From a virus, in IMG/VR virus record IMGVR_UViG_3300009168_000041, positions 1-64,000 of that record: a DNA stretch of 64,000 nt; one strand, given 5' to 3'. Under the pieces are notes generated by a model. It saw nothing but the letters and a program-made list of their open reading frames with translations, was not told where the DNA came from and did not search any database. Positions 8,495-42,799 of this stretch are shown piece after piece; position 1 is the stretch's first letter, and each line of letters begins with the position of its first letter. Both the position numbers and the translations under genes were made by a program.

Positions 8495-10354
8495 ATGGCA
8501 TCCCCCACCCCTACCCCGACCCCAACCCCTGCCCCCACCACCACCCCCAATCGCGCCGTACCGCCGTCCCACATCATCGAAGCCTACGCCTACGCCGGCT
8601 TCTTTCAACGGCGTGAGGCAAAAAAGCTCGCCAAGCGGCTCATCCTTGAAAGTAGCTTCCACGAATTCGTGCGCGCCGCATGGCCGCACATCGAAACCAC
8701 GCCGCTCATCGACGGCTGGTACATCGGGGCCGTGTGCGAGCACCTGCAAGCCGTCAGCGAAGGACATATCCGCAACTTGCTTTTAACGGTCGCGCCACGC
8801 TGTGCCAAGTCCCTTTTAGTCGCCACTCTCTGGCCGTGCTGGGAATGGACTCGCTGGCCGGAAAACCGCTGGATGTTTGCCAGCTACGCGGCCACGCTCA
8901 GCAAGCGTGACAGCATCAAGCGGCGCGACCTCATCAAGTCCGCGTGGTATCGCAACTTCTGGTGGGGGTGGAAGCTCAAAGACGATTCCGATACCCAGGT
9001 TCGATTCGAGAACACGAAACATGGATGGATGTTCTCTACATCTATCGGGGGAGTCGTAACCGGCGAAGGTGGGGATAGGCAGGTTATCGACGATCCGCTA
9101 AAGGCCGACGCCCGCTTCTCAAAAGCCGAGCGGGTCGAGGCCATTCGCTTCTACGATTCTACCTGGGTGACTCGTATTAACGACCCGAAGACGATCCGCC
9201 GCGTCGTCATCGGCCAGTGTATCTGCCAGGATGATTTCATCGGGCATATTCGCAGCCTCGGCACCTATGAGGAATTGTGCCTGCCGATGCACTGGACAAA
9301 GACGCACCATTACGCCAAGGGGCCGTTCCCGTTGCCCGGCACCTACGATCCACGGAGCCGCGGCGAGACGGATTCCGACTTGCTCTGCCCAAAGCGGTTC
9401 AGCGAAGAGGAAGTCAATGCATACGCCCCGCCGGGTGCATACGACCGCTCGGCACAAATTGAGCAGGACCCGCAGCCGGAGGAAGGCGACATGTTCAGCC
9501 GGAAGAACTTCTGTTACTTCACGGCAGAGGGAGTGGGTGAGAATGAGACGTTCACCCTACAATGCCGCGACGGCAAGACACGCAAGGTGCGGGCGGCTGA
9601 CTGCTGTTGGTTTCAAACTATCGACACGGCCCTGGAAGATACCGACACGGCCGCCTATACGGTTGTCACGACGCTCGCTATCACGCCCGCGCCCGCGTGC
9701 CTGCTGGTGTACGACGTGGCCCGCGAGCGGCTCGTAGTGCCGCGCCAGTATGGGTTCATTCTGGCCCAGCGGAAGCGGCACCCGCGAGTCATGGCCCAAT
9801 ACGTCGAGAAGAAGGCCAGCGGCCACGGACTCTTGCAGGAAGGGGCAATTAGCGGGACGCCGTTCGGGGCTCTCGTGGCTGACGTAAGCAAAGAGAAGCG
9901 GGCCGTGGCTATCGCAATCGCTTATGAAAATGGGATGGTGTTCCACCGCGTCGGGGCCCCCTGGTTGGACATCCTGGAAGACGAGCTGCTCAGCTTCCCA
10001 AGCGGCACTTACAAGGACCAGGTTGACACGCTATCCTACGCCGGGCTCATCATGCAGCGGCAGACGTATATGTCGCTTTTGGGGAGCCAGCACATTGCGT
10101 ATTTGCCAGAGGGTGAGGGGGCGGTGAAGTCAGATAACGAGAACAAGGATAGGGACGATGACAGGGACGGGGATGGTGGTAAAAATGGGAGCGCGGTAGA
10201 CGGCAGCGAACCTAAACGCACGATGGCTGACGACCTCGCGGCGGCACTAGGGATGGGAGGGGCGGGGGGCCAGGCAGCCGGCGGCGGTCAGGCGGGCGGC
10301 ACGGCTCTATCCAGGGCCCGCAGCGTGCGGCCGGAGTGGTTTCAAAGGGACTAG
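8495..10354 (+). CDS. terL: Terminase large subunit
   Basis: APRCAKS Walker A, TGEGGD..VIDDP Walker B, C-terminal nuclease with EKKASG and FPSG.YKDQVD. Confidence 0.92.
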   Translation: MASPTPTPTPTPAPTTTPNRAVPPSHIIEAYAYAGFFQRREAKKLAKRLILESSFHEFVRAAWPHIETTPLIDGWYIGAVCEHLQAVSEGHIRNLLLTVAPRCAKSLLVATLWPCWEWTRWPENRWMFASYAATLSKRDSIKRRDLIKSAWYRNFWWGWKLKDDSDTQVRFENTKHGWMFSTSIGGVVTGEGGDRQVIDDPLKADARFSKAERVEAIRFYDSTWVTRINDPKTIRRVVIGQCICQDDFIGHIRSLGTYEELCLPMHWTKTHHYAKGPFPLPGTYDPRSRGETDSDLLCPKRFSEEEVNAYAPPGAYDRSAQIEQDPQPEEGDMFSRKNFCYFTAEGVGENETFTLQCRDGKTRKVRAADCCWFQTIDTALEDTDTAAYTVVTTLAITPAPACLLVYDVARERLVVPRQYGFILAQRKRHPRVMAQYVEKKASGHGLLQEGAISGTPFGALVADVSKEKRAVAIAIAYENGMVFHRVGAPWLDILEDELLSFPSGTYKDQVDTLSYAGLIMQRQTYMSLLGSQHIAYLPEGEGAVKSDNENKDRDDDRDGDGGKNGSAVDGSEPKRTMADDLAAALGMGGAGGQAAGGGQAGGTALSRARSVRPEWFQRD

Positions 10355-18782: not shown

Positions 18783-19205
18783 ATGGGACTAGCGGGCTGG
18801 CTCGGCAATCAATGGGGAAACCTTATCGGCCGCAAGCCAGCCCGCACCCGTCGCAAAAACAACAAACTGAAGCTGGCAATCGTCGCGGCGAACGCCGAAA
18901 ACAGCCGGCTCATGGATTGCCTGGCCGCGGCGATACACGAGCGCGACGAATGGAAACAAGAGAGCGAACGCCAACAGGCGACCATCGAGGGCTTGCACGA
19001 TGACAATGCGGACCTTGAAAAGACTATCCGCCGGCTGGAAGAAGAGAAAGAATTACTCAACGCCGATGTCGAGGCGGCCAGCCGAATGATCGACACACAA
19101 CAGTCGTGGCTTGAGCGAATGCAGGCCGTAGAAACAGCCAAAAGGGCGGTAGCCGAGGGCACACGAGGAGCGTCAAATGGCATCGGTTCTTACCGCGTCG
19201 ATTAA
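18783..19205 (+). CDS. Coiled-coil hypothetical protein
   Basis: Heptad E/R/L-rich pattern; overlaps the portal start. Confidence 0.5.
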   Translation: MGLAGWLGNQWGNLIGRKPARTRRKNNKLKLAIVAANAENSRLMDCLAAAIHERDEWKQESERQQATIEGLHDDNADLEKTIRRLEEEKELLNADVEAASRMIDTQQSWLERMQAVETAKRAVAEGTRGASNGIGSYRVD

Positions 19206-21513
19206 GGCCCACCGCGCCCGCCGCGAGGCCGTGGGGCGCAGCCTAGTTTTATCCAAGGCATCATCTTCATCGTCGCCCATGTCCGTCATGACTGGCGGAT
19301 ATCCAAGCTTCATGGAATTGGCCTATGGTACGACGCTGGCCCGCCAGTCTGAGCAGTTCAGGCACTACTGCGGCTGGTCGTACACCGCAATCAATTGCAT
19401 CGCCCGCCGTCTTGCTGGCCAGAAGGTGAAGATGGGGCGCAAAGCCGAGGCGGCGGCCGAGATATCCACCTGGGCGTGGGACCGGCCGCCCGGCCGCAAG
19501 ATCCCCTTCCATACGCGACTCAAGGCCCCGGAATTCGTCAAGTCGATTGATTCGGACATCGAGGTAATCGAGACGCACCCGCTCTTAGACGCGGTGCAAA
19601 ATCCCAACCCAATCATGACATCATGGGACTTGCTGTTCTTCACCGTGGCCGGGCTGGAAATCACGGGGTTGGCCTATTGGTGGATTACCGATGACACTGG
19701 AGACGGTGAGGACCGGATGCAAATCTGGCCTCTGCCAAGCGATTGGGTGACGCCCAAGCACGGCAAGACGCTTTTCGAGAGCTACGTCATTCAGCCGCCC
19801 GGCCAGTTTGGGGTCAAGGTGGAAGTGGACGCTTCTGAGATTGTGCGGTTTCCGCTCATCGACCCCGCCAACCCACTTGGTACCGTTTCCCCGATGCAAG
19901 CGCAGGCCCCGGCCATAGCGGTTGACGAGGAAATTCAGGTTGCCCAGCATCGGGCGATGAAGAATGATGTGATTCCTGGCTTGGTATTTCGAGTTGGCAG
20001 GTTGCCATCAATGACCGGCATCGGCGAAGGGCCGCGGCCTGTACTTACAACAGAACAACGCCGCGAGCTTTATGACACCATTCGTGTGACTCACCAGGGG
20101 GTCGTCAATTTCCGAATGCCGCTCATCATCGACGGCATGATTGAGGGTGTAGATAGAGTTACCTACGCCCCGGCGGAACTCGACTTCCTCAACTCGGGCA
20201 ACGCGGTCAAGAGTCGCATTTTTCAGTCCTATGGCGTCAACCCGATCGTGGCCGGCGAGATTGCCGGTGTGAATCGGGCCCAAGCCGCCGTGGCTGATAG
20301 CATCTTCCTGCGCGGCGTCTGCAATCCGATCGCCGAAATGATCGGTCAAAAAATGACGCAGCACATCGGCAAGAAGGACGTTTTCTTCTGGCTGGAGATG
20401 CTAGAGGCAGACGATCCGGAATTGAAGTTGCGGCAAATGACAGAGGCAAGCCGCTTGAAGACGGAAAGCGGCAAAGGATTGGTGACGAAAAACGAGTGGC
20501 GGGCACAAATCCTTGGTCTGCCGCCAACGGACGATGGGGAAGAGACGGTAAGCAGTTCACCAGCCCCGCCGCCCAATCCGTTCGGAGTCGGTTTCCCTGG
20601 TCAGACGCCCGGCGGGCCGCCGAAGCTGGGGGAGAAGCCGGGGGATGAGGATGAAGACGGCAAGCCGCGTGGTAAGCTGCTGCCGCCGAAACCAGGTGGG
20701 GAAGGGAGCGGGGCAGGGAATGATACTGGTAACATTGAGGCAGCAGAAGAAAGCAGTAAGTCTGCTATCCGTCAAGTGAAGTTCGACTCCAATCAGCCGC
20801 GCGAACCGGCGGGAAGCCCCGAGGGCGGACAGTGGGCGGGAGGCGAAGGTAGTGGTGGTGGAAGTGGCGGCAGAATGGGTGATACATCGCGTTCATCGCG
20901 CCCGTTTGCTGATCCTTCTATCAAACGGGAATTTAATCCCAAAACTCTGCCGATTAATGCGCTGACATCAAGTACATCCAAGATATCTGATGATTCTAAG
21001 GAAGCGTTGAAGTGGTGGACTAGCGCAGATACCCAGTTCTCAAAAATAAACCGGGCGTTGTGGTCCGACAAGCCGATGCCGGCGAAACTCCAGTCTCTCC
21101 ATAATCGCATCGTCAAAGGTATTGAAGAGGCAAGACCGGTTGCTGAGGGTACCGTTGCCTATCGCGGGATTACACTGAAATCGACACGAGCTAGGGATGA
21201 ATTGGTCAAACAATTCGAGAAGTCGGCGGCCAGTGGTGAGCCTGTCACTATGAAAGGGTTTACTGCGACTTCGCTTGACCCAGAGCTATCTCGCAGTCTC
21301 TACGCCGGTGAACGATGGAAGGCTGTAATGTTTGAAATACGCCCAAAGAATGGCGTGTATCTATCACCTATTAGTACGGTGCCGAGCGAACAGGAATTGC
21401 TGATGAAACCCGGTGCCAAGTTTCGTGTAGCTGGGGTTCAGAAAAGCGTACTTGTCGGTTGGCAGACAGTTCAAGGCACGGGCCATATCCTCATTCAACT
21501 GGAGGAGGTGTAA
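19177..21513 (+). CDS. HK97-type portal protein fused to C-terminal ADP-ribosyltransferase (VIP2/Alt-like, R-S-ExE class)
   Basis: Portal motifs HPLL...NPNP.MT, GLAYWWI, IWPLP, SPM, NEWR...GLPP; then INRAL, AYRG, GFTATS, SEQELL. Confidence 0.85.
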   Translation: MASVLTASIKAHRARREAVGRSLVLSKASSSSSPMSVMTGGYPSFMELAYGTTLARQSEQFRHYCGWSYTAINCIARRLAGQKVKMGRKAEAAAEISTWAWDRPPGRKIPFHTRLKAPEFVKSIDSDIEVIETHPLLDAVQNPNPIMTSWDLLFFTVAGLEITGLAYWWITDDTGDGEDRMQIWPLPSDWVTPKHGKTLFESYVIQPPGQFGVKVEVDASEIVRFPLIDPANPLGTVSPMQAQAPAIAVDEEIQVAQHRAMKNDVIPGLVFRVGRLPSMTGIGEGPRPVLTTEQRRELYDTIRVTHQGVVNFRMPLIIDGMIEGVDRVTYAPAELDFLNSGNAVKSRIFQSYGVNPIVAGEIAGVNRAQAAVADSIFLRGVCNPIAEMIGQKMTQHIGKKDVFFWLEMLEADDPELKLRQMTEASRLKTESGKGLVTKNEWRAQILGLPPTDDGEETVSSSPAPPPNPFGVGFPGQTPGGPPKLGEKPGDEDEDGKPRGKLLPPKPGGEGSGAGNDTGNIEAAEESSKSAIRQVKFDSNQPREPAGSPEGGQWAGGEGSGGGSGGRMGDTSRSSRPFADPSIKREFNPKTLPINALTSSTSKISDDSKEALKWWTSADTQFSKINRALWSDKPMPAKLQSLHNRIVKGIEEARPVAEGTVAYRGITLKSTRARDELVKQFEKSAASGEPVTMKGFTATSLDPELSRSLYAGERWKAVMFEIRPKNGVYLSPISTVPSEQELLMKPGAKFRVAGVQKSVLVGWQTVQGTGHILIQLEEV

Positions 21514-21514
21514 C

Positions 21515-21670
21515 GTGAGTCGGTTCTCTGCTGTATTGGATGAGATTGTATTTGGCACTACGCCAGCAAGGGATATCATCGACGATGAAGAGGAAGAGGA
21601 AGAGGAGGATGATGAAGAGACGCATTCTCGCCCGCCCGCGAAGCCGCAACCGGAAGGTGCCGAGGGATGA
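21515..21670 (+). CDS. Small acidic protein, candidate ART inhibitor
   Basis: GGAGGAGG RBS, GTG start 1 nt after the portal-ART stop, poly-Glu/Asp. Confidence 0.5.
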   Translation: MSRFSAVLDEIVFGTTPARDIIDDEEEEEEEDDEETHSRPPAKPQPEGAEG

Positions 21671-21894
21671 CGCCGCAAACATTTTCTGTCTTTTCTATCT
21701 GGGGACCGACACCTTATACTCCCAACACGCTTCGGCAAGGCGAAGGGCCTGTGGTGTTTGGCGACGGAACAGTAGACGCCGAATGTGTGATAAAGTTTGC
21801 GACGTTCTTAGCACCCACTTGGGAAGATGCTTGCAAAGTGTATGAGGTCTTCCGCGGAGAGATCGAGTGGATGCGAGCGCAGGCACAGACGTGA
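21667..21894 (+). CDS. Hypothetical protein
   Basis: ATGA overlap with the previous stop. Confidence 0.4.
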   Translation: MTPQTFSVFSIWGPTPYTPNTLRQGEGPVVFGDGTVDAECVIKFATFLAPTWEDACKVYEVFRGEIEWMRAQAQT

Positions 21895-21911
21895 ATGCAG
21901 GCGTGAACGCA

Positions 21912-24215
21912 ATGTCTAATCGCGAATCTCTTATCGCCCGCAAGTCTTGGCTTCGCGACGCCTCGATTGCCCTCTGGACGAAAGCTGAACGCGAGGCGGC
22001 ACGCGAAGTCTACGATGCGGCATATCTCTTTTGTCAGGCCCAGCGGCGGGCCGTGGCGGCTGATTTGCGGCGGATTCACGACGACAGCCCCGGTACGAAC
22101 ACGGCGGACAAGATTGAGGCGGACGTTCTGAAAACAAAGGATTGGGAGAAGCTGCTGCGGGATACGGTTGGCGTGGCGGTGGTCAAGACGGTGGCGAGGG
22201 GGTATTTGGCGGCGAAGGCGGCGCAGGTGGGGCGGCGCAGGAGGCAGGCGGCGGGGGTGTGGGGGAAGGGTGGTCCTGGCTCGGGGAATTTCGGCCATGC
22301 TGGCAGGCCAGGAATGGTAGGTGGAAGCGCGGCGGGGGAAGGTGGTGGCACTTCTAGAGTGTCGTGGCCACATGGAGGAAGAAAGCCCGATACGGTATAT
22401 CGGATTCAACCGCAAGGTGCCAATTTACACGGTCAACAGTCCGAGACAAGCAACGGCGAGGTTATTGGTGGAGTTTTTGTATTTGATAACCTCAATGAAC
22501 TAGCTGCGATTGACTGGATGAATGAACCAGACGTTGAGCTTGTCGAAATTAGGATTGAACCCGGCGATACATTCCGAACATTTGACCAAGAGGGTACGGG
22601 ACTTCGGCAAGGCCGTGGTCAGGTTGTAGGTCGTATTCGCTTTGATGATGTTCGTGCTGCACGTGAATGGGCTGTCGAGGAACAAAGTAAAGACAACAAA
22701 AAGACCAGTAGAGTTGATGCCCGTAAATTTACTAAGCAAGGTTGGTCCGATGCCCCGCTCACCGACGCCGAGGAAGCCGAAATTCTCTCATTCGAGCTTC
22801 CGCCGTCCGTCACCCGCCGCGTCTTCGCTCACTCTGCCGAAATCATATCCAAGCCTTATTGGAAGGACGTGACGCAAACGGGGCTGGAATCCATGAAGTG
22901 GAGCATCCAGGAGGGCATCGAAGAGGGTAAGACGCTCAAGCAGATCGCCGATGACATCCAGGGGGACATTGACTCGGATAAAGTGCGTGCGAGGCGGATT
23001 GCAACGACGGAAGTTTCGGGGGCTTACGCCGCAGGCGCGCTTACCGAAGCCGAGGAAGCGGAAGCCGCGGGCGTGCGGATTGCGAAAACATGGATTACCA
23101 TCGGCGACGACAAGGTGCGTCCGCAGCACGAGGATATGGACGGTACGGTTGTGGAGGGTGCGGCCGGACTATTCAACGTCGATGGGGTCGAGGTGCCGTA
23201 TCCGGCGCACCCGGACTTGCCGGCAGCTAGTCGATGTAATTGTCGTTGCACGATGAGCATAGAGCCGATCCTTGAGGGTGAGACGGCCGCCCAGCATATC
23301 GAGGCGTACAAGGCGATAAGAGAGGCGGCAAGATGGCTCAAGTTCGACCCGGACCAGCCGCGTGACCCCGACGGCAAGTGGTCTGGCGGCGGTTCGTATC
23401 ACGCCGTCACTCGCGACAGCAACGGCACAGTTCGGCACAGCGATGGCAAAGTGAGCAAGGAACTCACGGCACGAGCGAAGGCGCTGCGTCTGCCGCCCGC
23501 GTGGACGGACTTGAAAATGAGCGCCGATCCCAAAAACGCTTTACAGGCCACGGGCAAAGACGCCAAGAGCCGCACCCAGTATGTCTATTCGGCGGCGCAT
23601 TCCGAGCGGGCGGCTGCCGAAAAGTTTGGGCGTGTGAAGCGGCTTATTAAAGAGCTTCCGGCCATCGACAAAAGCATTCGCCGCGATGCATCCACGAAAG
23701 ACGAGGCGGCCGTATTGCTTCTCATGCGGAAGACAGGGATTCGCATTGGCTCGGAACGGGATACGAAAGCTGAGAAGCAAGCTTATGGGGCATCGACATT
23801 GCGGGCAGAGCACGTCAAGATCGCCGGCGACAAGGTAACGCTCGCATTCACTGGCAAGAAGGGTGTTGATATCCGGCTGGAAGTCAAAGACAAGGAGCTT
23901 GTCGAGGTGCTCAGAAGTCGAATGGAAAAAGGCGGGAAGCTGTTTGACACTGACGACACGCGGGTAAGGGATTACATGCACTCAATCGACGGCAAATTCA
24001 AACCAAAAGACTTACGGACGATCAAGGCGGCGGACGTAGCACTGCAAACAATGAAGGGCATGTCGTCCCCGAAGAGCCAGGCGGAATTCAAAAAGTTCCG
24101 CAACGCGATAGGCGATGCAGTGGCGGCCAAGCTAGGAAACACGCGGGCCGTGGCGTTGGCAAGCTATGTGCCGCCCGAGGTCTTTTCACCGTGGAAGGCG
24201 AAGCTGGGGATATGA
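21912..24215 (+). CDS. Phage MuF minor head protein with an internal cargo domain and C-terminal DNA topoisomerase IB
   Basis: RARRIATTE, KTW...DDKVRPQH, NCRC (MuF); LPPAW, GKDAKSRTQY, GIRIG, GKKG, KDLRT, LGNT, SYV (complete TopIB catalytic set). Confidence 0.88.
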   Translation: MSNRESLIARKSWLRDASIALWTKAEREAAREVYDAAYLFCQAQRRAVAADLRRIHDDSPGTNTADKIEADVLKTKDWEKLLRDTVGVAVVKTVARGYLAAKAAQVGRRRRQAAGVWGKGGPGSGNFGHAGRPGMVGGSAAGEGGGTSRVSWPHGGRKPDTVYRIQPQGANLHGQQSETSNGEVIGGVFVFDNLNELAAIDWMNEPDVELVEIRIEPGDTFRTFDQEGTGLRQGRGQVVGRIRFDDVRAAREWAVEEQSKDNKKTSRVDARKFTKQGWSDAPLTDAEEAEILSFELPPSVTRRVFAHSAEIISKPYWKDVTQTGLESMKWSIQEGIEEGKTLKQIADDIQGDIDSDKVRARRIATTEVSGAYAAGALTEAEEAEAAGVRIAKTWITIGDDKVRPQHEDMDGTVVEGAAGLFNVDGVEVPYPAHPDLPAASRCNCRCTMSIEPILEGETAAQHIEAYKAIREAARWLKFDPDQPRDPDGKWSGGGSYHAVTRDSNGTVRHSDGKVSKELTARAKALRLPPAWTDLKMSADPKNALQATGKDAKSRTQYVYSAAHSERAAAEKFGRVKRLIKELPAIDKSIRRDASTKDEAAVLLLMRKTGIRIGSERDTKAEKQAYGASTLRAEHVKIAGDKVTLAFTGKKGVDIRLEVKDKELVEVLRSRMEKGGKLFDTDDTRVRDYMHSIDGKFKPKDLRTIKAADVALQTMKGMSSPKSQAEFKKFRNAIGDAVAAKLGNTRAVALASYVPPEVFSPWKAKLGI
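22734..22765 (+). repeat. 32-bp direct repeat copy 1 (encodes KQGWSDAPLT)
   Basis: 31/32 identical to 25178-25209. Confidence 0.9.
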
Positions 24216-25243
24216 GCGCACAAGAAGACTACAGCAGACTCGAAGCGTGGGCGGATTCCGTCCATTATGTCGGCGTCGGTGGCGGCAACCAGTGGGATGA
24301 CGATGAGACGCTTGCGGCGGAATGGTGGGATACGCCGGAGACGCAAGATGATCCCGACGATGAGGAGGATGAGGATAATGTTTCATCAGATACGTCGAAG
24401 CGATTTGCGGAAGTGTTAGGCAAGGGCGGCCCGGGGAGCGGCAACTTTGGACACGCGGGGCGGCCGGGAGAAGTCGGGGGGAGTGGGCCGGGGGGCGCGA
24501 CGGGCGAGGTGAACCCGAAGGTCGAGGCGTGGGCGCGGCAGCGGTTCGGCAGTGAGGAGAAGGCGCAGGCATTTACCAAATGGTTTGGACAGAGCAAAGT
24601 AGTCGATGAGAATGGCGAGCCGCTGGTCGTGTATCATGGGAATCGAGGTGAATCGTTCAATGAATTCGATGCGAGTAAGAATCGTGAACCACCGATGCCG
24701 AATGGATTGAAGCCGTGGTTTTTTGCCAATGATGAGACTATAGCTGGCAGTTATGGGCCAAATATCCAGTCATTCTATCTGCGAATGGATAATGTATTAG
24801 ACGTAACAGAAGTTCCTGTCTGGAATAAGGAGACTGCTGAACGAGATTCAATGTTTGTCCGTTCAGGGGACTACCGCAGGTTTCCTTATTCTTTACGAAA
24901 GGAACTGGAACAAGATGGAGTAAAGGGCGAAACTGATACGCAGCATATTCTTGATTGGATGGACAGTAAAGGCATCGCCTATGCTAAATGGAATTATGCC
25001 AACGCAATGAAGAAGTTTGGTACAAAGTATGATGGGATCATTGCCCGTAACACCCTAGATACATTCGGATCCGAGACACGGGGAGATATCTATATTGCCT
25101 TTAGACCCACTCAAATCAAGTCCACCAACAACCGTGGCACGTTCTCGCCGGACTCATCCGACATCCGCAAGTCCATCAAGCAAGGTTGGTCCGACGCCCC
25201 GCTCACCGAAGGCATCGAAAGCAAGGAGGCGGATACGGAATGA
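24212..25243 (+). CDS. Acidic N-module plus ART-PolyVal-like ADP-ribosyltransferase cassette
   Basis: AFTKWFGQSKVVDENGEPLVVYHG...FD, YDGII, IAFRPTQIKS..NRGTF motifs typical of the polyvalent-protein ART domain. Confidence 0.75.
   Translation: MSAQEDYSRLEAWADSVHYVGVGGGNQWDDDETLAAEWWDTPETQDDPDDEEDEDNVSSDTSKRFAEVLGKGGPGSGNFGHAGRPGEVGGSGPGGATGEVNPKVEAWARQRFGSEEKAQAFTKWFGQSKVVDENGEPLVVYHGNRGESFNEFDASKNREPPMPNGLKPWFFANDETIAGSYGPNIQSFYLRMDNVLDVTEVPVWNKETAERDSMFVRSGDYRRFPYSLRKELEQDGVKGETDTQHILDWMDSKGIAYAKWNYANAMKKFGTKYDGIIARNTLDTFGSETRGDIYIAFRPTQIKSTNNRGTFSPDSSDIRKSIKQGWSDAPLTEGIESKEADTE
25178..25209 (+). repeat. 32-bp direct repeat copy 2 (encodes KQGWSDAPLT)
   Basis: 31/32 identical to 22734-22765. 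Confidence 0.9.
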
Positions 25244-25992
25244 CCGGCTGTTTCGTCCGCGCCCTCTGGGGTGACGAGTACACGCAAGCCCACCCGGGCA
25301 CGCGCCCGCGCCCGTGCAAGACCCGCATGGATGTGCGGGCCGCTCTCCAGTGGCCGAACCGCCTTACCTCTCCCGTGGCCGTCTACAGCTTCGGCGTGGC
25401 CAACCAGCGATTCCTGGAGAAGTTGGGCGTGCGGTCGGTCATGCTGTCTGACGAGTACCTCCCTGGCTGCTTCAGCGGCGACGACCGGAACGTCAAAAAG
25501 CACGGGCAAGTCCACTGGGGCGTCAACCCGTTCAAGTACAAGATTGACGCGATTGCCGACGCCCTGAAAACCTATCCCGATGTCGTCTGGCTCGACTGGG
25601 ACGTGGAACCCGTCGCTCCCGAGCCGCCGGACCTATGGGAAAAACTAGCATGGGACCAGCCGCTCCAGGCGGCCGTGCGAACGCTCCGGGCCCGCTCGGC
25701 GAAGTGGCGGACGGGTGACGAGGCGGGAATGCGGGTTCAGCATCATGGGGCGTTCGTGTACATACGTGGACGCGAAACCGTGCGGCGGCTGCAAACCCTC
25801 GTGGCCGAACGCCCAACGGAGACGGAGGAGCACGCCATCGGCCGGCTGGTTGACGAGATGATGGGCGGCCGGTGGCTCGGGCTGGACACGTATCGGGAAA
25901 TGGGGTTCGTGCCATATTGCTATGACGTAGGGGACAAGCACAATAAGGTGTGGGACGCGGAAGAGGTGGTGTTTATGAACAGGGGAAGATAA
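25240..25992 (+). CDS. Putative GT-A glycosyltransferase, paralog 1
   Basis: CFVRALWGD N-terminal motif; VVWLDWDV DxD motif. Confidence 0.6.
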   Translation: MTGCFVRALWGDEYTQAHPGTRPRPCKTRMDVRAALQWPNRLTSPVAVYSFGVANQRFLEKLGVRSVMLSDEYLPGCFSGDDRNVKKHGQVHWGVNPFKYKIDAIADALKTYPDVVWLDWDVEPVAPEPPDLWEKLAWDQPLQAAVRTLRARSAKWRTGDEAGMRVQHHGAFVYIRGRETVRRLQTLVAERPTETEEHAIGRLVDEMMGGRWLGLDTYREMGFVPYCYDVGDKHNKVWDAEEVVFMNRGR

Positions 25993-26010
25993 CAAACGTG
26001 AAGGAATATC

Positions 26011-27051
26011 ATGCGAATTGTAGTAACGGGCGCGGTGGGCTTCATTGGCTCTTGGTTGTGCGAGCGGCTGATTGCCGATGAGCGTGATGTCGTCGGCGTG
26101 GACGATTTCAGCACGGGGCGGCACGAGAATGTCGGCTGCCTATTGAACGGCGACAGTCGTATGAGGATGTACTGTCATGACGCGGGCGACAAACTAATGA
26201 TGGAGCCAATTATCGCCGAGGCTGATTTTGTGTTCCATTTGGCTGCTACCGTAGGCGTCTTTCAGTACATGCAGGCAAGTGTCACAACCGTCCGCAATAA
26301 CGTCAACACCAGCGATACGGTGTTCGGGCTCTGCAATCGCTACCGCGTGCCGGTGCTCTTTACGAGCACGTCGGAAGTCTACGGCAAGTCGGCGGACGTG
26401 CCGTTCCGCGAGGATGCCGATATCGTCTTAGGGCCGTCCGAGCGGGCGCGGTGGGGCTACGCCGCAAGCAAGCTGACGGATGAGTTTTTGGCACTGGCCT
26501 ATCATCGGCAGTATGGCTTGCCAGTGCGAATCGTGCGGCTGTTCAATTGCGTTGGGCCGCGCCAGACGGGGCGATACGGTATGGTCGTGCCGCGGTTTGT
26601 CAGCCAGGCCAAAGCGGGGCAGCCGATGACGGTGTTCGGCGACGGCAACCAGACGCGGTGTTTTTGTTCTGTCCACGATATCGTGGATGGACTGATTGCC
26701 ATTGCTGGTTGCGGGGCCGCGGTGGGGCGGGTGGTGAATCTCGGAACTGACGAGGAAGTGTCGATAAACGAATTGGCGGAAGAGGTGGCGTTCTACGTCA
26801 ACCCGCACGGCGGCATTGTGCATGTTTCGTACTCAGAAGCTTACGGGGAAGGGTTCGAGGATATGACGCGGCGGGTGCCGGACATCACGCGGGCAAGGGA
26901 ACTCATCGGTTGGAAGCCGAGGCTATCGCTGGCGGATATTCTCGTAGAGATGGCAAACGAAAGGAATACATCATGCAAGGGGGCTGCTTCGTCCGCTGTC
27001 TCTTCGGCGACGCCACCATCCCCAACTTCGCTTCCGTGCTCAACGAAGTAA
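26011..27051 (+). CDS. NAD-dependent NDP-sugar epimerase/decarboxylase (extended SDR)
   Basis: TGAVGFIG, STSEVYG, YAASK, GDGNQTRCF. Confidence 0.9.
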   Translation: MRIVVTGAVGFIGSWLCERLIADERDVVGVDDFSTGRHENVGCLLNGDSRMRMYCHDAGDKLMMEPIIAEADFVFHLAATVGVFQYMQASVTTVRNNVNTSDTVFGLCNRYRVPVLFTSTSEVYGKSADVPFREDADIVLGPSERARWGYAASKLTDEFLALAYHRQYGLPVRIVRLFNCVGPRQTGRYGMVVPRFVSQAKAGQPMTVFGDGNQTRCFCSVHDIVDGLIAIAGCGAAVGRVVNLGTDEEVSINELAEEVAFYVNPHGGIVHVSYSEAYGEGFEDMTRRVPDITRARELIGWKPRLSLADILVEMANERNTSCKGAASSAVSSATPPSPTSLPCSTK

Positions 27052-27758
27052 AATGGTGCGTCGAGCGGCCCCACCAGCCCGAACCGACGCTCTGGTATGT
27101 CTTCGGCGAAGCCAACCGGGATGTCCTTCGCGATTGTGGTTGCCACCCCATCATGCTCTCGCCGGAACCGTTCTGCTACTTCGGCCACGACGACGGCAGC
27201 GGCATTAGCCACGACGGTCTGGTTCGCGGCGGCTCTAGCCTATGGCGGCACAAGTATCCGGCCATTGCGGACGCCTTGCACGTCTACCCGGCGGCTGTGT
27301 GGCTTGACTTCGATACGTTCCCATCGGGGGTCGTGCCGGCCGACTTCTGGACTCGGCTGGCGGCCGGGGCCGCATTCCAAGGCACCCTCGGGCAAATGGG
27401 CATGAAGCGGGCGAAGTGGCGAACGTGCGATGAGCGAAAGATACCGCTCGGGGCAATGCTCTACTTTCGTGGCCGCGAGTCCATCCAAGCGATGTTGGAC
27501 TTGTACGCCGAACATCCCGGCGAGTGGGACATGGTTGTGCTTGCCCGCCTGGCTGACCAGATGATGGGCGGTTGGAAGGGGCCGGAAGAGTACGTCAAGC
27601 AAGGATTTCAATTGTACTGCCACATACTGCTGCGGCGGCTGCGGTGGCAAGTCTACGCACCGGAGCAGCGGCTATTCGTGACGTTGACGGAGCATAAGCA
27701 GACGGTTCGCAAGGCGATAAAGGAATTGCAGGGTGGAATTGCGGACGGCGGAAATTGA
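26973..27758 (+). CDS. Putative GT-A glycosyltransferase, paralog 2
   Basis: CFVRCLFGD; VWLDFD; MMGGW. Confidence 0.6.
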   Translation: MQGGCFVRCLFGDATIPNFASVLNEVKWCVERPHQPEPTLWYVFGEANRDVLRDCGCHPIMLSPEPFCYFGHDDGSGISHDGLVRGGSSLWRHKYPAIADALHVYPAAVWLDFDTFPSGVVPADFWTRLAAGAAFQGTLGQMGMKRAKWRTCDERKIPLGAMLYFRGRESIQAMLDLYAEHPGEWDMVVLARLADQMMGGWKGPEEYVKQGFQLYCHILLRRLRWQVYAPEQRLFVTLTEHKQTVRKAIKELQGGIADGGN

Positions 27759-28791: not shown

Positions 28792-29128
28792 AAATGGCCC
28801 GCGACATCCACGGCATGGAAAACTGAGGATGTCGGGGCCAATTCACCCAGCAGGGAGAGCATTGTCGGTGGCAAAGCCAATAAGACCACCGGAGGTGTCG
28901 CCTGAGCCTCCACCGCTCAGGCGGGGCGGGGTCCAAACCTGCCTTGCCTTGCTGGCTTTTAATGTTACCTAGTTTATCGCATGAAGTCAACGCCCTCATA
29001 CCTAATGTGGCGATGGTCGCTGTCTCCCTTGTTCTGGAGAGTGGCCCGCGTCTTGGCGGCGCAGCAGTCTTATAACCTGCCGGAGGGGTCCGCTTCTGCG
29101 CGGACGGGATCGTAACCCCCTCTCTCCG

Positions 29129-29317
29129 CTAGCCCCGTGCGATTCGCCGCTGGGCTCCCCGCATCAGCGTATTCCGAGCCCACTTGGACATCTTCACGCC
29201 CTCTAGCTGGGCCGCCTGTTCGCAGTCTGCCTTTTCGGCCGACGTGAGCCGGATTTGGACAACGTGGCCCTTACGCTCATCGGGGGGTTTAACCGGGGCT
29301 CCGCGTTTCTTTCCCAT
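29129..29317 (-). CDS. Ribbon-helix-helix-like regulator
   Basis: VVQIRLTSAEKA..EQAAQLEGVKMSKWAR pattern; divergent from the transposase. Confidence 0.6.
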   Translation of the reverse strand: MGKKRGAPVKPPDERKGHVVQIRLTSAEKADCEQAAQLEGVKMSKWARNTLMRGAQRRIARG

Positions 29318-37964: not shown

Positions 37965-39293
37965 ATGGCGGACGCCGACTACGTAGAAGTCCATATCCAG
38001 TTCCCGCCCGCCGACACCGACGCCGTTAAGAATCGCCACATCAAAGCATGGGATGTGAACGCGGCCGAGGCGGGCACTGCTGGCCAGCCGTTCGTCAATA
38101 AGACGCTCGCCAACACCGTCAACTTCTACTCGTTCTCGTGCTTGAGTGGTGCCCGCATTCGCGTCGGCCAGTATGACGTAATGAACGGCGGTCGCGTGAC
38201 GGAGATGCACACGATCGAGTTCGGTGCCCATGCGGGGACGTGGGTGGAAACCGAATGGCTGTGGGTGAGCGACATCCAGGACCTCAGCGAATCGTCAAGC
38301 AGCACGTCCAGCACTTCCACCGCCGAGGTGAGCCGGTCGTCATCTTCCTCGACATCATCCAGTTCCAAGTCTACGGAATCGCTCAGCAGCTTCTCGTCGT
38401 CCACGGCTTCCACTGCATCCGTCACTTCGGAAAGCAGCCTGAGCACGACATCGACAAGCACGCTTGTTTCCACGTCTTCCACGAGCAGCAGCACGACATC
38501 GAGTTCCTCGTGGTCTTCGCCCAGCGTATCTACGCTATCGTCGCAAAGTGCGGCCAGCGAATCGTCGGCCAGCGAATCCAGCGAATCGTCAACCAGTTCG
38601 GCTAGCACGTCTTCTAGCAGCACGGCCGAAGCTTCCTGGTCGAGTTCCTCGACGACGAGCGGTTCTAGCAGCAGCACGTCAAGCGTTTCCACGACTTCTG
38701 GTAGCTCGTCTTCTAGCTCGTCCACGGTGGTGGCGTCCGGCTCGTCAAGTTCTACGTCAAGCAGCACCTCGTCTAGCACGTCCAGTAGCACGACGGAAAG
38801 CATTACCTCGGCTTCTTCGTTGAGCTACTCGACGGCAACTTCGTCTAGCACATCTTCGTCTAGCACGAGTGCATCTTCGCTGTCGAGCGCGTCTAGTGTT
38901 TCAGGTTCGTCGTCAAGCTCGAATAGCTCGTCTTCAACGGTTGTGGCTTCGTGGTCGTCAAGCAGCACATCAAGCAGTTCGTCGAAGAGTGAATCGTCGT
39001 CTTCGTCGAAGAGCGTATCGTCGTCTTCTTCCAATTCGGAAAGCTCAACCAGCACCGCCGGTGCTTCGTGGTCGTCTTCATCGTCGTCTAGCACGGCATC
39101 GGTTTCGAGTTCGTCCAGCAAATCTGTTTCGTCTTCCTCCACCTCAAGTTCGTCTAGCGCGTCGGTTTCGTCGTCGTCTTCCAAGTCGGTATCTTCTTCC
39201 TCGGCCTCTAGTTCCTCGACCGTCGAAATTTCGATGTCCAGTTCGTCCTCTACGTCTTCTTCCAGCACCAGTAGTTCGGAGAGCCAGGGATGA
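37965..39293 (+). CDS. Protein with ~105-aa beta domain and ~330-aa poly-Ser/Thr tail
   Basis: GGGAG RBS; Ser tract ~38286-39283; ATGA overlap with the prohead protease. Confidence 0.75.
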   Translation: MADADYVEVHIQFPPADTDAVKNRHIKAWDVNAAEAGTAGQPFVNKTLANTVNFYSFSCLSGARIRVGQYDVMNGGRVTEMHTIEFGAHAGTWVETEWLWVSDIQDLSESSSSTSSTSTAEVSRSSSSSTSSSSKSTESLSSFSSSTASTASVTSESSLSTTSTSTLVSTSSTSSSTTSSSSWSSPSVSTLSSQSAASESSASESSESSTSSASTSSSSTAEASWSSSSTTSGSSSSTSSVSTTSGSSSSSSSTVVASGSSSSTSSSTSSSTSSSTTESITSASSLSYSTATSSSTSSSSTSASSLSSASSVSGSSSSSNSSSSTVVASWSSSSTSSSSSKSESSSSSKSVSSSSSNSESSTSTAGASWSSSSSSSTASVSSSSSKSVSSSSTSSSSSASVSSSSSKSVSSSSASSSSTVEISMSSSSSTSSSSTSSSESQG

Positions 39294-41110
39294 GCCCAGA
39301 CGAATTGAACCTGAAGCTCGCCGATATTGTCCGCGGACGCACGGATCGCATGTCGCTCTATGGCTCGGGTATCCGGCTGGCCAGTGACTACGTTCGCGGG
39401 GTTCTGGACGCGGCTGGCAGCGACGGGGCGGTAGCGTTTCCGGACGCCGCTGGGATGGTAAAGGAAGCGGAAAACCGGCTCGTGTATCGCAATGACGATA
39501 TGGCTTACGAGCCGCCCATGACGAGCATGGGGGCCATCGCCGGGTACTGCAAAAGCATCGGGGTCGATACGCCGCCGCGGTGCCTCATGGTATTCGAGAA
39601 TATCGTCACTACCAGCAAGGAAGACAGGGACGGCGACATTCTTCGTAGCGAAGGGGCGATGGTTGACCCGCAAATGCCGCTGCTCTGGCACCACATGCTG
39701 CCGGCAATCGTTGGCAAGATGCTTTCGGTGCGGGAACAGAACAGCAACCACGTCCGCGTGGCGTCGGCCATCATGGAATCGCCGCTCGGGAACGACGTGG
39801 CCAACCTAATCGAGTTTGGGGCGTTGCGAATCAGCCACGGGTTCCGGCCTCTGGACTTCCGGCCGCGTGAAAAGGGACTGCGAAATACGCAAGTGCCACG
39901 AGGATACGACATCCGTTCATACGAAATGCTTGAGGAAAGCGTGGTTTCGGTGCCAAGCAACGTGGGGGGCGTTATCACCGCGTGGAGCCGCGGGAAGCTT
40001 TGCACCCCAATGGTCAAGGCGTGGGCAAAGTCGCTCAACGAATCGCGGCCAGACAAGGTGTATGCGGTGGGTGTCGCGATTGGTGGTGCGGCCAGCGTGG
40101 TTGGAATGTCCGCGCCTGACGCCAACATGCAATCGACAGACCAGGATGCCTACACGCTTGGCACGGTCACGATCCCGGTGAATCTGGAGATCAAAATGAG
40201 CCGCAAAAACGCAGACCCCACAGAACCCGACGGCCAGAAGCCGACGCCCACCGATGAAGACGTTCGCCTCGGGGCCGACGCCAAGCGGCAGAAGGAATCG
40301 GGCGACAACCCGCCGTCGTGGGCCGTGGATGAGGCGTTGTGGGAGCGTGCGAAGAAAGCGGCCGATAAGTCATACGACGAATCGGACGAGGCGTACTGGC
40401 CGGTGGTGGTCACCATCTACCGAAACATGGGCGGAACAATCCAGGGCGACGCCCAGAAGTCTGTTGAACCCGAACCCAAGCCGGCGGCCAAGCCGGAGGA
40501 GAAAGTCATGGACCCCGAAGTCAAAACCGCGCTCTCCTCCAAAGCGATGGGCACTGAACCGGATGAGGAGGGAGATGGCGAAGACACCGCCGAAGCCAAG
40601 TGCCCTGAGTGCGGCGAAACGGTAACACCCGATGCCGATGGCAAGTGCCCTGAGTGTGGGGCTGCGATGAAAAAGCCGGAAAGCAAGAGTGCCGAAAGCG
40701 ACGCGGAAAAGTCCCCGGCACCCCTGGCTGACAAAGCAGGCCGCGTACTCTCCACCGCCAACGAGGCCGCTATTCGCACCGCCGCTGCCGCCCTCCAAGC
40801 GGTTCTCGACCAGGTAGGCGAGCCCGAGAAACAGAAGCCCGGCGAGCCGCCGGCCACCGACAAGCCGGACGAACAGCCGCCACGCGAAGGGCCGCCGGTA
40901 GAACTCAACCTCCCTGACTCTTCGCTTTCGCTTCAAGCGGCGTGCCAGACGGTGGTAACAAAACTATTCGACTTGGACCCCGCAGACACGTCGGCCGAAG
41001 ACGTGAAGATCATGCGGCGAACCAACGAAGCACTCGGCTTGGCCTTGGAACAGGTCAATAGGGCGAAACGGCGGCGGGCCGTTGAGAAGGTATTTTCCCG
41101 TAAGCGGTAG
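39290..41110 (+). CDS. HK97-family prohead protease with long C-terminal extension
   Basis: DRDGDIL, PLLWHH, ISHGF, EESVVSVPSN; extension with LWERAK..YRNMGG, double CPECG and KAGRVLS motifs. Confidence 0.85.
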   Translation: MSPDELNLKLADIVRGRTDRMSLYGSGIRLASDYVRGVLDAAGSDGAVAFPDAAGMVKEAENRLVYRNDDMAYEPPMTSMGAIAGYCKSIGVDTPPRCLMVFENIVTTSKEDRDGDILRSEGAMVDPQMPLLWHHMLPAIVGKMLSVREQNSNHVRVASAIMESPLGNDVANLIEFGALRISHGFRPLDFRPREKGLRNTQVPRGYDIRSYEMLEESVVSVPSNVGGVITAWSRGKLCTPMVKAWAKSLNESRPDKVYAVGVAIGGAASVVGMSAPDANMQSTDQDAYTLGTVTIPVNLEIKMSRKNADPTEPDGQKPTPTDEDVRLGADAKRQKESGDNPPSWAVDEALWERAKKAADKSYDESDEAYWPVVVTIYRNMGGTIQGDAQKSVEPEPKPAAKPEEKVMDPEVKTALSSKAMGTEPDEEGDGEDTAEAKCPECGETVTPDADGKCPECGAAMKKPESKSAESDAEKSPAPLADKAGRVLSTANEAAIRTAAAALQAVLDQVGEPEKQKPGEPPATDKPDEQPPREGPPVELNLPDSSLSLQAACQTVVTKLFDLDPADTSAEDVKIMRRTNEALGLALEQVNRAKRRRAVEKVFSRKR

Positions 41111-41170: not shown

Positions 41171-42799
41171 ATGAATCTCACGACCAACCTGAAGGGCTGG
41201 CTTGCGGAGAACTGCCAAGTTCCGGCAACGGCCAGCGACGAAGAGTTCAAGAAGGCCGCCAGCCTGGCGATCTTCGATGACAAGCTTTCCGCTACCAAAC
41301 TCGCCGAACTCACCGAGGAAGGCGGGCCGGACGCGGCCGACGTGATTGGGCAGGCACTCGCCAAGGCCCTGGCCCCGATTACCCAGAAAATGGCTTCCCT
41401 GGAAGAGCGGCAGTCGCAACTCCAGAACGCCGGGGCCCTCGGCTCCGCCCTGGAATCGGCCATTACCAACGTCAAGCCGACGGTCAGCGGCGAGCCCGAC
41501 AAGGTGCCGTCCAGCACCCGGGCGGCGCAACTGTTCGGGGCCGCCGACCCGCAAGTCCGCGTCAAGTCGCCGATGGAGCGGTACAGCCATACCAAGTCGA
41601 TGCTGACGTACCCCGACCGGGACAAGCACGGCCGCCCGCACCCGAAGGCCGGGCTGCCCATTTCCATGCCGAACGCCTTCAACAGTTCTTTCGAGACCAT
41701 CGCCCAGGATGAGACGGCGATTATCGGCGCGTTCGTCAAGTGGTCGGCGAACATGGGCGGCAAGGGCGTTTGCCCGCACCCGCTGCTTCGCATGACGGAG
41801 CACGACCAGCAACTGATGGAATACGCGATGCACGAGATGCCCTGGACGGGCTACCTCAACGCCTCGGGCCGAAACGAGATCGAGTTGACCGGAGAGAAGC
41901 TGACCGACTTCCAGCGGAAGACGCTGCTTGACGATTCCACGTCCGGCGGCCTGGAAGCCGTGCCCGTTGTCGTGGACCTCGCCCTGATTACCACGCCGGT
42001 TCTCTTCGGCGAACTGTTTCCCCTGGTTGAGGTGGTGCCGATTCCTCGGGGCCGCCGGATCGAGGGGGCCAGCATCGGCAACATCTCGTGGACCTCGGGC
42101 ACCGCCGAGGGCACGAGCATCACGCCGTTCAACACGGCGTCGATGATCGCGGCGTTCGACAACACCGTCTATCCCGTGGTTGCGGCCATCGAAGTCGGAA
42201 ACGACTTCCAAGAGGATTCGCCGTTCTCTATCGGCCAGACGATCATCAGCAAGGCCGGCGAGAAGCACATGGAATGGCTTGACAACCAGATCGCCAACGG
42301 CGACGGCACGACTGAGCCGCAAGGCATTTTCAACGCCAGCGGCACGACCGACATCGGCAACCCGTCCGGCGGGGCCGGCGCGGCGGCCACGATCACCGAC
42401 TACGAGAACCTGCTGTTTGGGATCTCGAAGGCGTATCGCAACACCCCGCAAGACCGGGCCCGCACCGTGTACATCGCCAACGACACGTCTTACAAGCGTG
42501 CCCGCGCGATCTACGTCGGGGCTGCCGACGCCCGGCGTCTGTTCGGAACGGACTACCAGAGCTACATGCTCGGGGACGTGCCGTTCAAGGTTCAGAACGA
42601 CATCGACAACGCCTACGCGGCGTGCTGCAATCTCCGCTACTACCGCATGTATCGCCGGCAAGGCGTACAGGTGGTGACGGAGACCGGCGGCCGGACGCTG
42701 CAGCTCCAGAATCTCACCCTCATCGTCATGCGGGCTCGCTGGGCTGGAAAGCTGACGCTGGGCGGGGCCTGCGCGTATTCCGACAACTGGCAGGCGTAA
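41171..42799 (+). CDS. Major capsid protein (HK97 fold) with N-terminal scaffold domain
   Basis: Follows the protease; SGGLEAVP and NGDGTTEPQGI motifs; strong C/G-ending codon bias. Confidence 0.88.
   Translation: MNLTTNLKGWLAENCQVPATASDEEFKKAASLAIFDDKLSATKLAELTEEGGPDAADVIGQALAKALAPITQKMASLEERQSQLQNAGALGSALESAITNVKPTVSGEPDKVPSSTRAAQLFGAADPQVRVKSPMERYSHTKSMLTYPDRDKHGRPHPKAGLPISMPNAFNSSFETIAQDETAIIGAFVKWSANMGGKGVCPHPLLRMTEHDQQLMEYAMHEMPWTGYLNASGRNEIELTGEKLTDFQRKTLLDDSTSGGLEAVPVVVDLALITTPVLFGELFPLVEVVPIPRGRRIEGASIGNISWTSGTAEGTSITPFNTASMIAAFDNTVYPVVAAIEVGNDFQEDSPFSIGQTIISKAGEKHMEWLDNQIANGDGTTEPQGIFNASGTTDIGNPSGGAGAAATITDYENLLFGISKAYRNTPQDRARTVYIANDTSYKRARAIYVGAADARRLFGTDYQSYMLGDVPFKVQNDIDNAYAACCNLRYYRMYRRQGVQVVTETGGRTLQLQNLTLIVMRARWAGKLTLGGACAYSDNWQA

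Follow-up and report, generated by a model that had tools for sequence, protein, structure and literature searches.

Enzyme cargoes, junction tags and a probable displaced cassette among the head genes of a metagenomic phage

The viral DNA considered here, positions 1 to 64,000 of the IMG/VR record IMGVR_UViG_3300009168_000041 (hereafter the window), makes up the initial 64 kb of one linear contig of 87.6 kb, from an uncultured tailed phage, that shows neither a terminal repeat nor flanking host DNA; nearly all large frames of the window lie on its plus strand. Our subject is a MuF gene and the open reading frame directly downstream of it (ORF2), which hold two different cargo domains, cargo 1 and cargo 2, between the same pair of short peptides. 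With moderate confidence, we favor the reading that the head proteins of this phage carry probably injected enzymes, that such cargo is exchanged at conserved junctions, and that ORF2 is a cassette displaced from a slot inside a MuF protein.

A MuF gene with two cargo positions and its downstream neighbor

The MuF frame opens at a GTG, the ATG at 21912 being the likelier start, and Pfam recognizes the MuF domain itself (PF04233) with E 1.6e-16 at residues 343-463. The protein has two cargo positions (Table 1): an internal slot between its N-terminal region and the MuF body, filled by cargo 1, and the C-terminus, where an extension of 291 amino acids (aa) is a type IB topoisomerase (TopIB), which does not count as a recognized toxin domain. 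The portal protein upstream likewise ends in an enzyme domain, an R-S-E type ADP-ribosyltransferase (ART) joined to the portal core through the motif VK/FDSNQPREPAGSPEGGQW, in which, as below, the slash marks the junction. Every cargo in the window is introduced by one of two junction motifs, tag A (consensus GGPGSGNFGHAGRPGxVGGS, about 20 aa) or motif B (consensus FDxxQPR[DE]...W), and a Lys precedes both copies of tag A, both copies of motif B and both copies of the QGW peptide found to the right of each cargo.

ORF2 overlaps its neighbors at both ends through ATGA sequences, its start overlapping the MuF stop and its own stop overlapping the ATG of the next gene. Behind an acidic leader and a second copy of tag A lies cargo 2, which the preliminary description of this DNA had called ART-PolyVal-like; a match over the full length of the Pfam family ART-PolyVal (PF18760, E 4e-19; profile positions 1-140 of 140; 70.1 bits, Pfam's gathering cut-off being 31.2), together with the family motifs VVYHG and PTQIKS, bears this out. 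The leader has no homologue in the genome or in the loci we retrieved. Within it, a 21-nucleotide (nt) stretch rich in Asp and Glu codons (24355-24375) is 90% identical to one at 21580-21612, in a small acidic frame that separates the portal gene from the MuF gene.

A search of 5.8 billion proteins returned a single close relative of the MuF N-terminal region, P0263, a protein of 730 aa encoded on a 38.8-kb contig, and the comparison with it separates the MuF protein into conserved and exchanged parts. The two proteins are 50% identical in the N-terminal region, 95% in the tag and 67.5% in the MuF body, whereas the slot content (23%) and the sequence after the body (20%) are not homologous. 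P0263 carries an ART-PolyVal domain in its internal slot, and its C-terminus consists of tag A and a helical domain where the window has motif B and TopIB. Cargo at the slot is accordingly not invariant among relatives. A partial metagenome locus, L001, encodes a MuF body 64% identical to that of the window, followed by tag A and an ART of the ADPrib_exo_Tox family, then a conserved methyltransferase and a homologue of the window gene at 26910, with no ORF2-like gene ahead of these two. The window, P0263 and L001 thus present three different C-terminal cargoes, and since tag A stands at this position in P0263 and L001 and motif B in the window, the two motifs replace each other at one and the same place.

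The same comparison fixes the nature of the peptide KQGWSDAPLT to the right of both cargoes. It is kept in P0263 as KRGWADIPIT, followed by the same ILSFELP.SVTRRV segment, and because the body of P0263 starts with KRGWADIPITEEEQQAILSFELPASVTRRV where that of the window starts with KQGWSDAPLTDAEEAEILSFELPPSVTRRV, KQGWSDAPLT is the first stretch of the MuF body and belongs to neither cargo. No further relative of this MuF type appeared in IMG/VR or in GTDB genomes, the cultured phage genomes gave only distant domain matches to P0263 and no DNA-level match to the MuF and downstream region, and the degenerate DNA pattern for K[QR]GW[SA]D.P[LI]T[DE] found no match in IMG/VR. Its sole match in GTDB, L070:293-324 (RKQGWSDSPLTELG), is a chance resemblance in a frame that begins ...LVRHGQTLFN...; this Oscillibacter frame is presumably a histidine phosphatase (phosphoglycerate-mutase-like), judging by its RHG...PLT motif.

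Internal slots occur in unrelated MuF families too. One locus (L005) has the layout N-terminal region, tag, ADPrib_exo_Tox, MuF, tag and helical tail, and a second (L030) has N-terminal region, tag, GNAT and MuF. A clear example is a MuF of another family (L009): roughly 65 residues in from its N-terminus, the tag and about 30 residues fill a loop where the related L021 and L027 have only a short one. A further tagged stretch, L025:3563-6697, has a MuF core followed by matches to HINT/intein-like and DUF559/REase endonuclease domains, two tags and a ParB-like nuclease; this may represent a cargo polyprotein with an intein, or with a HINT-type module that cuts itself.

The shared boundaries and the cargoes between them

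As the preliminary description had noted, the two cargoes share a left boundary that is conserved as protein and a right boundary that is conserved as DNA, and both observations hold. At the left, 22266-22313 and 24422-24469 both encode KGGPGSGNFGHAGRPG, with different codons at 14 of the 16 positions; an alignment of 21 residues contains 20 identities, 2 identical codons and a longest shared run of 5 nt. The codon usage of the phage predicts about 6.4 identical codons in 16, and the observed number is fewer than that (P(<=2) = 0.014). At the right, 22734-22765 and 25178-25209 agree at 31 of 32 nt, both in frame, in direct orientation and in the same codon phase, with 9 of 10 codons identical where 4.6 would be expected (P = 0.002); the longest exact run inside this repeat is 17 nt. 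Just right of the first copy, the sequence also shows 80% identity over 35 nt to 23029-23063 in the MuF body (GALTEAEEAEAAG, GALTEAEEAE), and we rejected this candidate third partial repeat as chance similarity in Ala/Glu-rich coding sequence.

The preliminary description had taken these boundaries as a pair of cassette signals, and here our analysis departs from it: the right one is the start of the MuF body, as kept in P0263, and the left one is a generic junction tag of roughly 20 aa that is not specific to this locus. Collecting proteins with GGPGSGNFGH, as had been proposed, showed the tag ahead of many cargo families in hundreds of phage protein clusters, recurring 1-11 times per protein. 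A search with the ORF2 protein returned many proteins that match only over the roughly 20 tag residues and that carry ADPrib_exo_Tox, GNAT, ParB, zeta-toxin, zincin-like or MuF domains, with 2-4 tags per protein, each before a different module; an exhaustive profile-free search with the MuF insert returned 926 representative clusters at E <= 0.001, mostly giant proteins with 3-11 matching stretches; and a scan of IMG/VR gave 111 matching stretches, from which 68 distinct loci were kept. The literature we searched held no paper with the tag A peptide string. Across about 40 of these loci (L002-L068), each phage keeps to its own residue in front of tag A, and this residue varies from one phage to another (Lys; Leu/Ala; Asp; Asn; Glu); for the phage of the window and for its two relatives it is Lys. 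Many other phages have exact DNA matches of 20-47 nt between the tag copies of a single locus (for example L042:4291-4337 and 4714-4760; also L008, L006, L031 and L020), and such long exact repeats would be ready substrates for recombination.

Codon composition also partitions the two genes. The backbone head genes have a GC content at third codon positions (GC3) of 0.69-0.86, against which the segments in Table 1 can be read: GC3 in the MuF gene falls and rises in two steps (Fisher 7e-10 and 3e-9) located at K/GGPG and K/QGW, and in ORF2 the breaks coincide with the most conserved motifs of the ART-PolyVal family. Both cargoes are AT-richer than their surroundings, as first described, with a GC content of 0.475 in cargo 1 and 0.458 in the ART-PolyVal part against 0.582 for the genome. 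In MuF, the unit that stands out as foreign by composition comprises tag, cargo 1 and disordered linker, its limits being the tag's first Gly and the Lys that precedes QGW. On the simplest reading, tag 1 came along with cargo 1 from a source of lower GC; tag 2 and the two KQGWSDAPLT copies have long been resident, as have the ends of the ART cassette; and the center of the ART domain in ORF2 has itself been replaced. An imported tag 1 facing a resident tag 2, with resident KQGW copies on the other side, accounts for left boundaries whose DNA has diverged and right boundaries that are nearly identical.

Evidence on the origin of ORF2 comes from its alignment with the slot of P0263, which is colinear over the whole cassette (BLASTP, 39% identity, E 2e-45). 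The alignment starts with KRFAEVLGK/GGPG in ORF2 against RRFPPVWRK/GGPG in P0263 and ends with RKSIKQGWSDAPLTE against NKSVKRGWADIPITE, so that on the P0263 side it spans RRFPPVWRK/GGPG to KSVKRGWADIPITE. The peptide RFAEVLG at the end of the ORF2 leader resembles the end of the MuF N-terminal region of P0263, and ORF2 thereby keeps about 9 aa of a MuF N-terminal region and 10-12 aa of a MuF body; relatives of ART-PolyVal normally end ...QIKSAxGNxGxFDPxxPDIxK, without a KQGW-type tail. Because ORF2 aligns end to end with the P0263 slot, including MuF remnants on both sides, it is probably a former slot cassette that now stands alone.

Cargo 1 belongs to a small family, of which about a dozen relatives could be detected. 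They come in five arrangements: as proteins of 100-166 aa that stand alone, one with a motif-B-like DESKHPRDQRGRF in front; as an addition to the C-terminus of a portal (P0271); before a MuF (P0143); after DUF7447 (P0136); and as an insertion in the topoisomerase IB part of P0142 (1017 aa), a Mu-type portal-TopIB fusion. The insertion site in the last of these corresponds to the short KIAGDKVT hairpin of the window TopIB; together with the presence of cargo 1 and TopIB in one polypeptide in the window, this may point to a functional link or may simply be another insertion slot. The preliminary description had found cargo 1 unrecognizable and possibly of ART fold, and had suggested predicting its structure. 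Cargo 1 indeed has no match in Pfam or PHROG, in Pfam even at E <= 10, and a profile of its alignment against PDB sequences returned only noise. An AlphaFold model built with the 12-sequence alignment reached a predicted local distance difference test score (pLDDT) of 76, and about 87 over the core, with linker and KQGWSDAPLT disordered; a single-sequence model reached 41. Searched against representative structures, the model matched CC0527/DUF952 best (Z 6.8, root-mean-square deviation 2.9 A over 94 residues), then MbcT (Z 5.9), and below these TreX and EcPltA (Z 5.0) and pertussis S1, RES toxins, diphtheria-like toxins, Arr, ParT and DarT (down to 4.1), so that the first 33 rows hold almost only members of the ADP-ribosyltransferase superfamily, at scores that are modest. 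The ESM Atlas gave only sub-threshold leads, including Arr-ms at 0.88. In the alignment (A3 numbering), R20, H29, D81 and G84 are invariant and S36 and E83 nearly so, a pattern compatible with an R-S-E-like site (R...S...[D]xE). Cargo 1 may be an enzyme.

Table 1. Features of the MuF-ORF2 locus and of the surrounding head genes; GC3 is the GC content at third codon positions
Feature	Position in window	Strand	GC3	Remarks
Large terminase	8495-10354			
BNR/beta-helix protein				1722 aa; between large terminase and portal in head module order
Portal protein	19177-21513	+	core 0.71; ART part 0.48	Phage_portal E 5e-32; C-terminal ADPrib_exo_Tox E 2e-11
MuF gene	21867-24215	+		782-aa frame: MuF, cargo 1 and TopIB
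MuF N-terminal helical region	21912-22265	+	0.75	ends ...RRRRQAAGVWG
Junction tag A, copy 1	22266-22328	+		K/GGPGSGNFGHAGRPGMVGGS; GC3 falls exactly at first Gly
First Gly of tag through linker	22269-22733		0.37	
Cargo 1 core	22368-22709	+		MuF residues 168-281
Right boundary, copy 1	22734-22765	+		KQGWSDAPLT
MuF body	22734-23339	+	0.69 from KQGW	Phage_Mu_F core ~22893-23255
Junction motif B, C-terminal slot	23340-23381	+		K/FDPDQPRDPDGKW
TopIB cargo, C-terminal slot	23457-24155	+	0.69, backbone-like	Topoisom_I E 6e-23; Top1B_N_bact E 2e-9
ORF2	24191-25243	+		350-codon frame; 343 codons from ATG 24212
Acidic ORF2 leader	24212-24421	+		~70 residues; ATG overlaps MuF stop as ATGA; last residues RFAEVLG
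Junction tag A, copy 2	24422-24484	+		K/GGPGSGNFGHAGRPGEVGGS
ORF2 tag and first helix	24422-24568		0.88	tag 2 and next ~28 codons
Cargo 2, ART-PolyVal domain	24605-25144	+	0.42 in center	central 24569-25105 compositionally foreign
ORF2, PTQIKS to end			0.78	
Right boundary, copy 2	25178-25209	+		KQGWSDAPLT, probable MuF body remnant; then 11 codons and stop 25241-25243
Glycosyltransferase-like, epimerase and methyltransferase genes	~12 kb of genes, following ORF2			
S78 (HK97-type) prohead protease	39290-41110			borderline Pfam match
HK97-fold capsid protein	41171-42799			

The portal, MuF and ORF2 genes sit among packaging and head genes (terminase, S78 protease and capsid protein). No peptidase domain, zincin-like or other, was found by Pfam in their three products, and no small immunity-type frame follows ORF2 or separates cargo 1 from the MuF body, with which it shares one frame. 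Two genes further downstream, at 25240-25992 and 26910-27758, are paralogs that start M..GCFVR.L.GD and match no family; the preliminary description had called them glycosyltransferase-like. A homologue at L001:1950-2837 is likewise placed after MuF. A tRNA-Ile with anticodon TAT was called at 29035-29129, and its unusual length of 95 nt may mean an intron or an extra arm.

Exchange and probable displacement of cargo

The favored reading would run as follows. The portal and MuF proteins would double as enzyme carriers whose modules ride in the capsid and are delivered with the DNA, the internal slot being loaded with cargo 1, the C-terminal slot with TopIB and the portal with its R-S-E type ADP-ribosyltransferase. 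Packaging of these modules in the capsid is suggested by analogy with gp7/MuF of SPP1, Alt of T4 and the polyvalent proteins. Phages would exchange such cargo by recombination at or beside the conserved junctions, the unit entering MuF having been tag, cargo 1 and linker, while ORF2 would be a slot-type cassette from a relative that was given its own acidic leader and became translationally coupled to both neighbors; most likely it is still made as a separate tagged cargo protein. The HK97-type prohead protease may in addition cut after the Lys at each junction, a step we propose more tentatively than packaging. In the capsid protein, FQRK/TLLDD lies close to where its scaffold-like N-terminal part should end, and the cleavage of HK97 gp5 follows a Lys. 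As to a possible link between the residue in front of the tag and the protease family, a search for Peptidase_S78 in five phage records of the Lys type matched one of the five, these records being fragments.

What the 32-nt repeat can and cannot do bears on whether exchange is a matter of the past or of the present. A crossover between its direct, in-phase copies would fuse cargo 1 to the ORF2 tail in frame and delete the MuF body, TopIB and the ART-PolyVal domain; the preliminary description had foreseen the loss of the MuF core and TopIB, and cargo 2 is to be added to it. The product would probably be a dead phage. As the left flank offers no usable DNA homology, the repeat alone cannot yield a swap, for which a second exchange at the tag would be needed. 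Given this deletion-only outcome, the lack of homology at the tag and the lack of an alternative joint in the assembled contigs of the one run examined, where rare variants could be hidden, we read the repeat as the scar of a past event and not as a working switch. Exchange of cargo at the MuF slot during evolution is supported by the sequence comparisons; ongoing swapping is not supported.

Several other explanations deserve comparison with this account. If the shared peptides reflected only a common need for a tag and a protease site, ORF2 need never have been part of a MuF protein, and the ubiquity of tag A ahead of many stand-alone cargo proteins, as well as the Lys before QGW in both copies that is found at other junctions too, would be what such convergence predicts. 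Convergence does not, however, predict the near identity of codons at the right boundary, the use of the KQGW peptide as the start of the MuF body in P0263, the colinearity of ORF2 with the entire P0263 slot down to residues upstream of the tag, or a tail that ART-PolyVal relatives ending ...FDPxxPDIxK normally lack, and we consider it improbable. A partial duplication of MuF whose leftover is decaying without a function of its own would explain the MuF remnants at both ends of ORF2, and would sit well with a leader that has no homologue and with the lack of an equivalent gene in L001; yet the frame is intact over 343 codons, matches ART-PolyVal at full length, keeps an intact tag and is joined to both neighbors by ATGA overlaps, which leaves this account rather unlikely.

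ORF2 might instead be held as an active spare from which gene conversion refills the MuF slot, so that the phage population would be mixed for slot content. The near-perfect direct repeat at the right boundary and the long exact tag repeats of other phages lend themselves to such a scheme, and the orphan cassettes of contact-dependent inhibition (CDI) and Rhs systems work by exchange of this kind. Against it stand a left flank with at most 5 identical nt in a row and codons that differ beyond chance, the removal of the MuF body by a single crossover at the right repeat, and the one spanning contig with no alternative joint, although contigs hide rare variants; on balance we think an active spare unlikely. 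The least credible account, to which we give very little weight, is that the repeat caused two MuF variants, one with cargo 1 and one with ART-PolyVal, to be joined into a false contig. The DNA does come from a freshwater-sediment metagenome at a modest depth of about 9x, and P0263 shows that a variant with ART-PolyVal inside MuF exists. The exact run of 17 nt within the repeat is nevertheless shorter than usual assembler k-mers, and an independently built 20-kb contig, from the only public run with this DNA and possibly its source, spans 21000-26500 with zero differences, colinear over 5.5 kb and with no loose ends at the boundaries; together these make an assembly artifact, which the preliminary description had raised, unlikely. 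The leader and tail of ORF2, moreover, are found in no MuF.

A number of observations weigh against the reading that we favor. The searches turned up no more than two relatives of this MuF type, of which one is partial. Profile-profile comparison aligned the MuF body to insert-free MuF proteins at 99% probability and gave no significant alignment for the N-terminal region (probability 0.5%), so that the placement of the slot inside the MuF fold rests on P0263 and L009. The Z scores for cargo 1, at most 6.8, lie in a range where a match can reflect a common arrangement, and Foldseek returned nothing at E <= 0.001 from PDB or BFVD; because the scores are modest and Foldseek stayed below threshold, an ADP-ribosyltransferase-like fold for cargo 1 is likely on the strength of the model, not established. 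Packaging and cleavage are both read from sequence, and cutting MuF at its internal slot could harm its function, so that the tag may not be a cut site there. How the ART-PolyVal cassette came to leave MuF, and in what order, we infer, and every scenario tried for placing it downstream needs several events: partial duplication with later replacement and deletions would be consistent with the origin of ORF2 but is such a multistep path.

A broader and more tentative proposal, one that we raise as a possibility only, is that the junction motifs (with the residue in front of them) form a general plug-in interface, through which any module that bears such a motif could be attached to the portal C-terminus, a MuF loop or the MuF C-terminus, or have a separate gene, without forfeiting its loading and release. 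Tailed phages would then renew their sets of injected enzymes chiefly by recombination at these motifs, and displaced cassettes would stay in use instead of disappearing. Were this true, the locus would be a case caught in the act, in which donor and resident parts can be told apart by codon usage.

Proteins that travel with phage DNA decide the first minutes of infection, from host takeover to counter-defense, and how they are renewed is poorly understood. The locus offers a concrete unit of exchange (tag, domain and linker), a defined insertion point in an essential head protein and a relative with another occupant, so that the idea of exchange becomes open to experiment: head proteins could be expressed, and their loaded cargo and cut sites mapped. 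Cargo 1 adds a small undescribed family with a likely ART-like fold, carried on portals and MuF proteins and once inside a topoisomerase. If the junction motifs are indeed labels for loading or cutting, they could help to detect injected effectors in metagenomic data and to direct proteins of choice into phage capsids.

Relation to known systems

Among familiar ways of loading enzymes into a head, the capsid targeting of T4 comes to mind, in which a short N-terminal peptide marks enzymes, an ART among them, for the capsid interior and is removed by gp21, which processes Alt and the internal proteins. The likeness lies in a short peptide ahead of enzymes, including an ART, and, in T4, in a site matched to the head protease; the sequences are unrelated, the motif here also stands between carrier domains, and targeting and cutting at our locus are predictions. 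Orphan cassettes of CDI and Rhs systems are downstream variable modules that keep a short piece of the carrier, which marks past homologous recombination and permits it in the future. ORF2 resembles them as a downstream module that keeps a carrier fragment, identical at 31 of 32 nt to the resident copy. It differs in having carrier pieces on both sides, in stemming from a module internal to the carrier instead of C-terminal, in apparently being expressed alone with a delivery tag, and in the absence of immunity genes. A general framework for polymorphic toxin loci is said to have been provided by Zhang et al. in 2012.

The polyvalent proteins are the closest relatives in concept: effector domains are fused to MuF or portal proteins whose genes lie among those for the head, and packaging and injection are proposed for them, T4 Alt being cited there as well, and ART and MuF are hub domains of architectures that are mosaic and change fast (Iyer, Burroughs, Anand, de Souza and Aravind, 2017; PMC5512222). 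The window shares with them at least two effector-type domains in one polypeptide (MuF, cargo 1 and TopIB) and the location among head genes. For the polyvalent proteins, processing by a zincin peptidase is proposed as a common but non-obligatory theme (PMC5512222), whereas neither the portal, MuF nor the ORF2 protein has such a domain by Pfam; text searches of that paper found neither a conserved junction tag, nor a slot internal to MuF, nor a free-standing cassette with carrier remnants, nor the word 'linker'.

The MuF polymorphic toxins of temperate phages carry a variable toxin-like domain, frequently an ART, that is proposed to be delivered with the DNA; in the passages returned by text searches they take only two forms, one short and one extended at the C-terminus, a small immunity frame usually comes next, and the word 'linker' is absent (Jamet et al., 2017; PMC5576092). 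Our locus is like them in a MuF domain that carries variable cargo. Where their C-terminal extension, of at least 100 aa, bears a toxin domain, the 291-aa extension here is TopIB; the toxin-like cargo is internal, and the next gene encodes a 343-aa ART-PolyVal protein. With an internal toxin-like cargo, TopIB and no immunity gene, it is not a member of that class as defined. Of the internal-cassette polymorphic effector system that the preliminary description had proposed, the variable cargo at one internal MuF position stands, as P0263 attests, while 'polymorphic effector' applies no further than by analogy, since the cargoes lack immunity genes behind them. To these known systems the locus adds an internal MuF slot with differing occupants, a cassette that was probably displaced from such a slot, composition breakpoints that set off its exchanged parts, and the cargo 1 family.

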